A stretch of DNA of 8,031 nt from the IMG/VR virus record IMGVR_UViG_2526164690_000036, one strand, 5' to 3'. Made by a program: the position numbers and the translations under genes. Source of the DNA: a virus. Taxonomy: Duplodnaviria > Heunggongvirae > Uroviricota > Caudoviricetes. The notes under the pieces are model-generated. The model saw only the letters and a program-made list of their open reading frames with translations. It had not been told where the DNA came from and searched no databases. This document shows, one piece after another, positions 3,550 through 4,366 of this stretch; positions within the stretch are counted from its first letter, which is position 1, and each line of letters opens with the position of its first letter.

Positions 3550-3708
3550 ATGTGGATTGTGTTAGTACTGTCACTGTCAACTCTCAGTTGGCATAAGGTA
3601 GTGGCTTTTTCATTGTTGACGGTGTCTGTTGTCCTGGCTGTGCTTAATGATATTATTGATTGGTCGGTGTTATTTTTTGTTGCTACAATCGTTTTTTTAT
3701 TATTTTGA
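3550..3708 (+). CDS. Small hydrophobic ORF (52 aa), either a separate membrane peptide or the N-terminus of the frameshifted CPBP gene
   Basis: ATG 3550 has a strong ribosome-binding site (AAAAGGAG, 7 nt spacing). Product MWIVLVLSLSTLSWHKVVAFSLLTVSVVLAVLNDIIDWSVLFFVATIVFLLF is almost entirely hydrophobic. It is absent from the ORF track because it is short. Confidence 0.4.
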   Translation: MWIVLVLSLSTLSWHKVVAFSLLTVSVVLAVLNDIIDWSVLFFVATIVFLLF

Positions 3709-3958
3709 AGTTCAACTGGAAATATAACGCCTGGGCTAAATCTATATATGAAGTTGGCATAGTTTTATCAGCCATAGCATTATCTTTCCATCTATGGCCA
3801 GGGTTTCACAATCCTGTAGTGCTAAATTCTGTTACTGTTGGCCCTCAAAGTACTCCCTATACAATGTATTTTAATTTTGATAAAGCGCTGGTGCCATTTT
3901 TGTTAGTCCTGTGTACATCTTCTTTGTTTAAAAAAGAAGTAAAATCAGAAGTGTCTTT

Positions 3959-4366
3959 GTGGAAGTGGGGGGCTCTGTCGCTCTCTGTTCCTCTTATCCT
4001 GTTTTTGGCTGTTTTTTTGGTGGATTAAAGCCAGAGATTCATTTTCCTGAGTGGTTGCCAGAGTTTATATTGGCTAATTTGTTTTTTGTGTCTCTGGCAG
4101 AGGAATCATTATTTAGAGGGTATATTCAATCACGGCTATCAGAAGTAACGTCTCCATTGGTTGCATTAATTGTGGCGGCTTTGTTGTTTGGTTTTTATCA
4201 CTATTCAGGTGGTGCTTTACTTGTATTATTTGCCACGTTATCTGGTGTTGTGTATGGATTGTCATGGATGTGGAGTGGGCGTTTGTGGGTTGCCACCCTT
4301 TTCCATTTTGGTTTGAATCTGTGTCACTTGTTATTCTTTACCTATCCATTTTTAAAACATAATTGA
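3959..4366 (+). CDS. CPBP/Abi-family catalytic-core ORF as it stands in this sequence (135 aa)
   Basis: Contains all three CPBP signature motifs in order and spacing: EE at about 4100-4105, FxxxH at about 4187-4201, HxxxN at about 4304-4318. Confidence 0.65.
   Translation: MEVGGSVALCSSYPVFGCFFGGLKPEIHFPEWLPEFILANLFFVSLAEESLFRGYIQSRLSEVTSPLVALIVAALLFGFYHYSGGALLVLFATLSGVVYGLSWMWSGRLWVATLFHFGLNLCHLLFFTYPFLKHN

Follow-up and report, generated by a model that had tools for sequence, protein, structure and literature searches.

Two frame breaks in a prophage gene for a CPBP-family protease of Escherichia coli very probably reflect homopolymer under-calling in a draft assembly

Homopolymeric contingency genes are known from Neisseria, Haemophilus and Campylobacter, where the length of a mononucleotide tract within the coding sequence sets the reading frame, while programmed -1 ribosomal frameshifting operates on heptamers of the X_XXY_YYZ type, as found in dnaX (A_AAA_AAG), the IS3-family transposases and HIV-1 (U_UUU_UUA). 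The gene described here, which is interrupted by two T7 runs, bears some likeness to both systems. It shares with the contingency genes the dependence of the frame on the length of a coding tract, but differs from them in showing no tract-length polymorphism among finished genomes and in lacking the tract in a diverged allele; moreover, the T8 found in related strains is short beside the typical switching tracts of such genes. Both T7 runs also form X_XXY_YYZ heptamers like those of dnaX, the IS3-family elements and HIV-1; unlike in these cases, the arrangement is not conserved, no stimulatory element follows the first site, and an in-frame T8 is the norm in the population. A further resemblance is that to the artefacts of flow-based sequencing (454, Ion Torrent) or of uncorrected long reads, with which the locus shares single-base deletions confined to the longest A/T runs and the recurrence of the deficits in unrelated strains of one project, alongside other homopolymer deletions. 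Homopolymer indels in pyrosequencing-based bacterial assemblies are known to require verification by Sanger sequencing (PMC2834635). The locus departs from simple homopolymer under-calling in one respect, namely that a T8 run adjoining a GC-rich hairpin has the correct length throughout the assembly series concerned, implying a context-dependent error.

The window, by which we mean the whole stretch of 8,031 bp analysed, is base-for-base identical to the entire contig AIGH01000011.1 (L011 in our numbering) of the draft assembly GCA_000249835.2. The nearest finished genome is that of E. coli O111:H11 strain 88.0502 (NZ_CP077567.1), which also shares an IS10 insertion downstream of the CPBP gene with the window. 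Over positions 423-8031, the two sequences differ by no substitution and by only two gaps in 7,609 aligned bases, and both gaps consist of one T missing from the window, one at 3692-3698 and the other at 4012-4018. The features of the interrupted gene are as follows.

3550-4366, plus strand: gene for a CPBP/Rce1-like intramembrane protease, in three frames as assembled; 819 nt and 272 aa when repaired
3540-3544, plus strand: Shine-Dalgarno-like AGGAG, 5 nt before the ATG at 3550, as read from the sequence
3544-3708, plus strand: ORF fragment 1, frame 1; called by the submitter as 52 aa from ATG 3550
3660-4028, plus strand: ORF fragment 2, frame 0; called by the submitter as 54 aa from ATG 3864
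3959-4366, plus strand: ORF fragment 3, frame 2; contains the complete Rce1-like domain
3692-3698, plus strand: site 1, T7 run flanked by G and A; T8 in finished genomes
4012-4018, plus strand: site 2, T7 run flanked by G and G; T8 in finished genomes
4100-4117, plus strand: CPBP motif 1 (EExxxR), here EESLFR, aa 185-190
4187-4201, plus strand: CPBP motif 2 (FxxxH), here FGFYH, aa 214-218
4304-4318, plus strand: CPBP motif 3 (HxxxN), here HFGLN, aa 253-257

The preliminary description of this DNA had located a T7 run at each of the two frame switches, and these positions were confirmed exactly. They are the only T7 runs in the whole window, and the only other runs of at least seven bases are a T8 at 7349-7356 and an A7 at 7584-7590. 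Site 1 falls into the codons for Val-Phe-Phe at residues 48-50, within a hydrophobic segment, and site 2 into those for another Val-Phe-Phe at residues 155-157. When each run is lengthened by one T, the frames join into a single ORF of 819 nt, running from ATG 3550 to the stop codon at 4366 and coding for 272 aa, and the start annotated by RefSeq in the homologues corresponds to the same ATG. Since the two missing T's are the only differences from the nearest finished genome over the aligned bases, this repair into one ORF is not a chance reading of the sequence.

After repair, the protein does not differ from WP_000265267.1, an annotated protein of 272 aa, which is encoded in O111:H- strain 11128 (ECO111_RS05605) and in strain 88.0502 (KP533_RS17215) by the same DNA except for the two T's. 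The genes also agree in their place between the gene for the antiterminator Q and an AraC-like HTH gene with a tRNA cluster, and the window differs from them only in carrying T7 rather than T8 at the two tracts, hence three ORF fragments. In a profile search, the repaired protein matched PF02517 over aa 169-258 with 70.6 bits (cut-off 22.4; E 1.4e-19), and a crude Kyte-Doolittle scan with a 19-aa window gave hydrophobic peaks at about aa 18-36, 35-53, 142-160, 197-215, 223-241, and 246-264. As judged from the sequence, the product is thus predicted to span the membrane several times and to belong to the CPBP/Rce1-like intramembrane protease family. Because all three CPBP motifs and the complete catalytic domain are located 3' of site 2, a version with T7 at both sites would not give rise to an active protein from the normal start.

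A view on the complete E. coli genomes in RefSeq shows that the region of the CPBP gene is present in 572 of 5,426, with the best matches covering 1,103 bases in the subject for a query of 1,101 bases. Tract lengths were read with queries of 86 or 87 nt around each site, for which one gap pushes the identity below 99% and thereby separates T7 from T8. Among the finished genomes, T7 at site 1 was found in none of 568 and the exact T8 87-mer in 530; at site 2, T7 occurred in one of 572 and the exact T8 87-mer in 542, which shows that the out-of-frame arrangement is not kept in the homologues. Finished genomes carry the homologous gene as one undivided CDS of 819 nt, and all full-length matches in a spread sample of 60 records measured 819 nt and were annotated as one CPBP CDS. 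Both the single-gene reading and the T7-to-T8 repair proposed in the preliminary description therefore match the state of the homologues, and T8 in the homologues, which had been set beforehand as the sign of an intact gene, is what was observed at the level of related genomes. Alleles combining T7 with a SNP might be hidden among the 38 and 30 genomes without an exact T8 87-mer at the respective sites, but about 25 diverged alleles explain most of these cases.

The sole finished genome with T7 at site 2 is that of the O157 strain AR-0430 (NZ_CP044140.1, L004), in which the gene (3550-4367) is annotated as "frameshifted" and site 1 is T8. Over 8 kb, it differs from O157:H7 strain E32511 by two substitutions and by the T deletion at site 2 as the only indel, and may represent either the one credible case of real slippage or an error left over in the consensus. 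Alleles of 96-97% identity have retained T8. A more strongly diverged allele (L028; 67% identity, 272 aa), which is also located directly after Q, has no T tract at either site: site 1 reads GTT GGG CTA TTG and site 2 GTT TTA CTG GGT, with Leu-Leu in mixed codons replacing Phe-Phe. The tracts are therefore no conserved device, and would best be regarded as incidental Phe-Phe codons of predicted transmembrane segments rather than as a conserved switch or recoding signal.

The shortened tracts recur in other public assemblies. At least 1000 contigs encode the intact protein. About 100 carry the 52-aa fragment, 13 the middle fragment of 54 aa, and 26 the third fragment of 135 aa, while a 159-aa product resulting from T7 at site 2 only is found on 21. 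Nine of the 10 matches listed, out of 13 for the 54-aa fragment, come from a single series of consecutive accessions (AIFF, AIFG, AIFH, AIFI, AIFJ, AIFL, AIGH, AIGR, and AIGX). These nine assemblies were chosen via T7 at site 2 (9/9), leaving the state of site 1 unselected, and site 1 is T7 in eight of them versus none of the 568 finished genomes (Fisher p = 3e-17). The nine represent at least three haplotypes, one being of O111 type, several of O157:H7 type (at 2-6 substitutions from strain E32511), and two lying 67-87 substitutions away. Further single-base deletions are scattered over their T6, T8, A6, and A7 runs; these are not nested and occur in combinations incompatible with one another, and nearly all indels in the sister assemblies of the window are deletions in A/T runs of at least six bases. 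For example, AIFG shows 3 substitutions and 5 indels, every one of the latter a T6 or T8 deletion, and AIFI shows 3 substitutions together with deletions in A6, T8, and T8; AIFH retains T8 at site 1, yet has lost a T from a T6 run 19 nt upstream.

Assemblies outside this series show related patterns. Three recent assemblies with megabase contigs (L007, L009, and L015) contain 7, 29, and 33 indels per 10 kb, respectively, nearly all of them homopolymer deletions, and several neighbouring genes are split as well. In short contigs derived from raw runs (Logan; L016-L024), T7 at site 2 goes together with a T7, T8, or T9 run at site 1 and with other small indels. The most frequent draft variant has T7 at site 1 and T8 at site 2, corresponding to the 52-aa product, and occurs in 0 of 568 finished genomes; it is represented by the drafts MINC01 (L005), AFAI02 (L008), DF970566 (L010), CXZL01 (L012), ADUQ01 (L013), and BJRE01 (L014). 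Some of its carriers show other homopolymer indels (several in ADUQ01), while it is the only indel in CXZL01.

The preliminary description had offered four options for the two frame breaks and settled on none; under-calling now emerges as strongly favoured, decay into a pseudogene as unlikely, and both on/off switching and -1 frameshifting as disfavoured. Judging from the related genomes, the breaks are very probably artefacts of base-calling or assembly, and the real gene is intact. Two real T8 runs would each have been called one T short in GCA_000249835.2, and the true gene would then be the intact one of 819 nt and 272 aa, identical to that of WP_000265267.1. As the T7 deficits follow the project and not the phylogeny, they resemble a systematic error of base-calling, whose cause we infer to lie in the sequencing chemistry or in the consensus step. 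Both the profile of the errors and the era suggest that the project used a flow-based chemistry such as 454. The under-calling would have to be context-dependent, because the T8 run at 7349-7356 is called correctly in the window and in all its sister assemblies of the series, while it is shortened in L007, L009, and L015; the shortened T8 and T6 runs of the series assemblies lie in T-rich surroundings.

A genuine pseudogene would require that the strain is truly T7 at both tracts, having suffered two independent deletions by replication slippage, of which the second would have been neutral after the first had inactivated the gene. This course of events is compatible with the nature of T8 runs, which are intrinsically prone to slippage, and with the isolated state of the deficits in the finished genome of AR-0430 (site 2 T7 as the sole indel versus E32511) and in CXZL01 (site 1 T7 without other indels). 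The absence of any further indel, and thus of any further homopolymer error, from the window in comparison with 88.0502 likewise counts against an artefact. On the other hand, two slippages combined with zero substitutions in 7.6 kb would be an unlikely ratio for a non-mutator lineage, the double deficit is repeated in seven further assemblies of this project (at least three haplotypes across the series) and in none of 568 finished genomes, and the extra, mutually incompatible homopolymer deletions of the sister assemblies resemble noise and not descent. We therefore regard true decay of the gene in this strain as quite unlikely. A broader view, in which slippage truly concentrates at the T8 tracts and T7 is the real state in some strains, that of the window perhaps among them, appears decidedly improbable as well. 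If it were true, a Q-adjacent prophage gene for a membrane protease would be repeatedly and genuinely inactivated, or else switched on and off at a low rate, and AR-0430 (site 2) and the approximately 100 draft contigs showing T7 at site 1 would be natural examples. On a more modest scale, AR-0430 and CXZL01 indicate that occasional real slippage may occur at these tracts.

Regulated uses of the tracts fit the data less well still. The gene might be a phase-variable contingency locus, with the T tracts serving as slipped-strand on/off switches and the strain caught in the off state, as the presence of two long homopolymers inside one coding sequence and the T7, T8, and T9 states of site 1 among the contigs derived from raw reads could be taken to indicate. 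However, T8 is essentially invariant in about 570 finished genomes from many serotypes, the contigs with T9 or T7 variants carry other small indels (C2, A2, T6), and the diverged allele lacks the tract at either site. Phase variation was rejected because of this invariance in the population together with the tract-free allele, and we consider it very improbable. Alternatively, with the T7 runs taken as real, the full-length protein could arise through programmed -1 ribosomal frameshifting or transcriptional slippage. The slippery-like T_TTT_TTG heptamer pointed out earlier for site 2 is indeed present at 4013-4019 in the incoming frame 0, and site 1 offers a T_TTT_TTA heptamer at 3693-3699 in the incoming frame 1 (U_UUU_UUG and U_UUU_UUA, respectively, in the mRNA). 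RNA folding predicted a moderately stable hairpin starting about 11 nt downstream of site 2 (-21.3 kcal/mol, z = -2.08, reached by 8 of 200 shuffles), but this value is marginal after two tests and the hairpin lies farther out than the usual spacing of 5-9 nt; no stimulatory structure was predicted downstream of site 1, where the folding was weaker than that of the shuffles (z = +1.56). In addition, two consecutive frameshifts would multiply two low efficiencies, and the diverged allele is devoid of the heptamers. The main reason for rejecting programmed frameshifting is that the homologues, with T8 and a single ORF, are in frame without any shift, which agrees with its earlier ranking as the least likely option; we regard recoding as extremely improbable. 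If T8 is the true state, the hairpin after site 2 becomes irrelevant.

With under-calling as the preferred explanation, the ORFs of 52, 54, and 69 aa deposited for the CPBP gene on the contig are pieces of one intact, widely conserved prophage gene of 272 aa. At least nine drafts from one project share this spurious "pseudogene", which has also entered the protein databases, and comparisons of gene content or pseudogenes among pathogenic E. coli based on such drafts would mistake the gene for a lost one. The frameshifts themselves hold no new biology, and their value is one of quality control. Some neighbouring calls are short for another reason: the stored call for Q (3273-3398) comprises 41 aa, while the full ORF extends from 3018 or 3027 to 3398 (123 aa in RefSeq), and that for the AraC-like HTH protein (6649-7038) comprises 129 aa versus 237 aa for 6325-7038. 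These are annotation quirks common to the sister assemblies, and the sequence itself is sound.

The genes of the window follow in the order hokD, DUF968, rusA, Q, CPBP, the AraC-like HTH gene, three tRNAs, a SASA esterase gene, and a holin gene. The segment belongs to a lambdoid (Stx-phage-like) prophage of E. coli, in which the CPBP gene is a low-GC accessory gene, located 150 nt 3' of the antiterminator Q gene (PF06530). The GC content of positions 3400-4500 is 35-39%, with a strongly positive GC skew, versus approximately 50-55% in the flanking rusA and Q genes, and this drop over the CPBP gene suggests that the gene, lying between Q and the tRNA cluster, is an accessory one gained by horizontal transfer. 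The layout of Q, accessory genes, tRNAs, SASA esterase, and holin is like that of Stx phages, without stx genes. Further features of these surroundings are listed here.

4517-5725, minus strand: ORF of the IS10 transposase
4495-4503 and 5833-5841: perfect 9-bp target-site duplication of the IS10 element, CGCATAGCT
7067-7142, 7150-7226, and 7240-7316: three prophage tRNA genes

A complete IS10/ISVsa5-type element of 1,329 bp occupies positions 4504-5832, 137 nt 3' of the CPBP stop codon, and the same insertion is found in only two finished genomes, those of the O111:H11 strains 88.0502 and 88-19539. Positions 1-422 of the window represent the terminal 422 nt of a second, inverted IS10-like copy, 98.4% identical to the internal one (7 mismatches) and absent from the nearest finished genomes. 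Both copies face the 4.1-kb hokD-DUF968-rusA-Q-CPBP segment with the same end (CTGAGAGATCC..., the 3' end of the transposase gene). Going by their arrangement, the two copies would give the geometry of a Tn10-like composite transposon, with the left copy situated at the contig end.

Between the IS10 element and the AraC-like HTH gene, a small gene with the annotation of a TrmB-family regulator (5991-6230) is one G short (around position 6136) compared with the intact 65-aa CDS of O111:H- strain 11128. The same deficit is present in the finished genomes of 88.0502, E32511, and AR-0430, where the gene is annotated as "frameshifted". In contrast to the T7 tracts, the missing G looks like a polymorphism that is real and inherited.

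A GC-rich stem (ggctcgcttttgcgggcc) precedes the T8 run at 7349-7356, and two GC-rich palindromes enclose the A7 run at 7584-7590; from their sequence, both look like intrinsic terminators. The first of the three tRNAs was assigned by ARAGORN as tRNA-Met (CAT) versus tRNA-Ile in RefSeq, where CAT was presumably read as a lysidine-modified anticodon, and the other two are tRNA-Arg (TCG and TCT).
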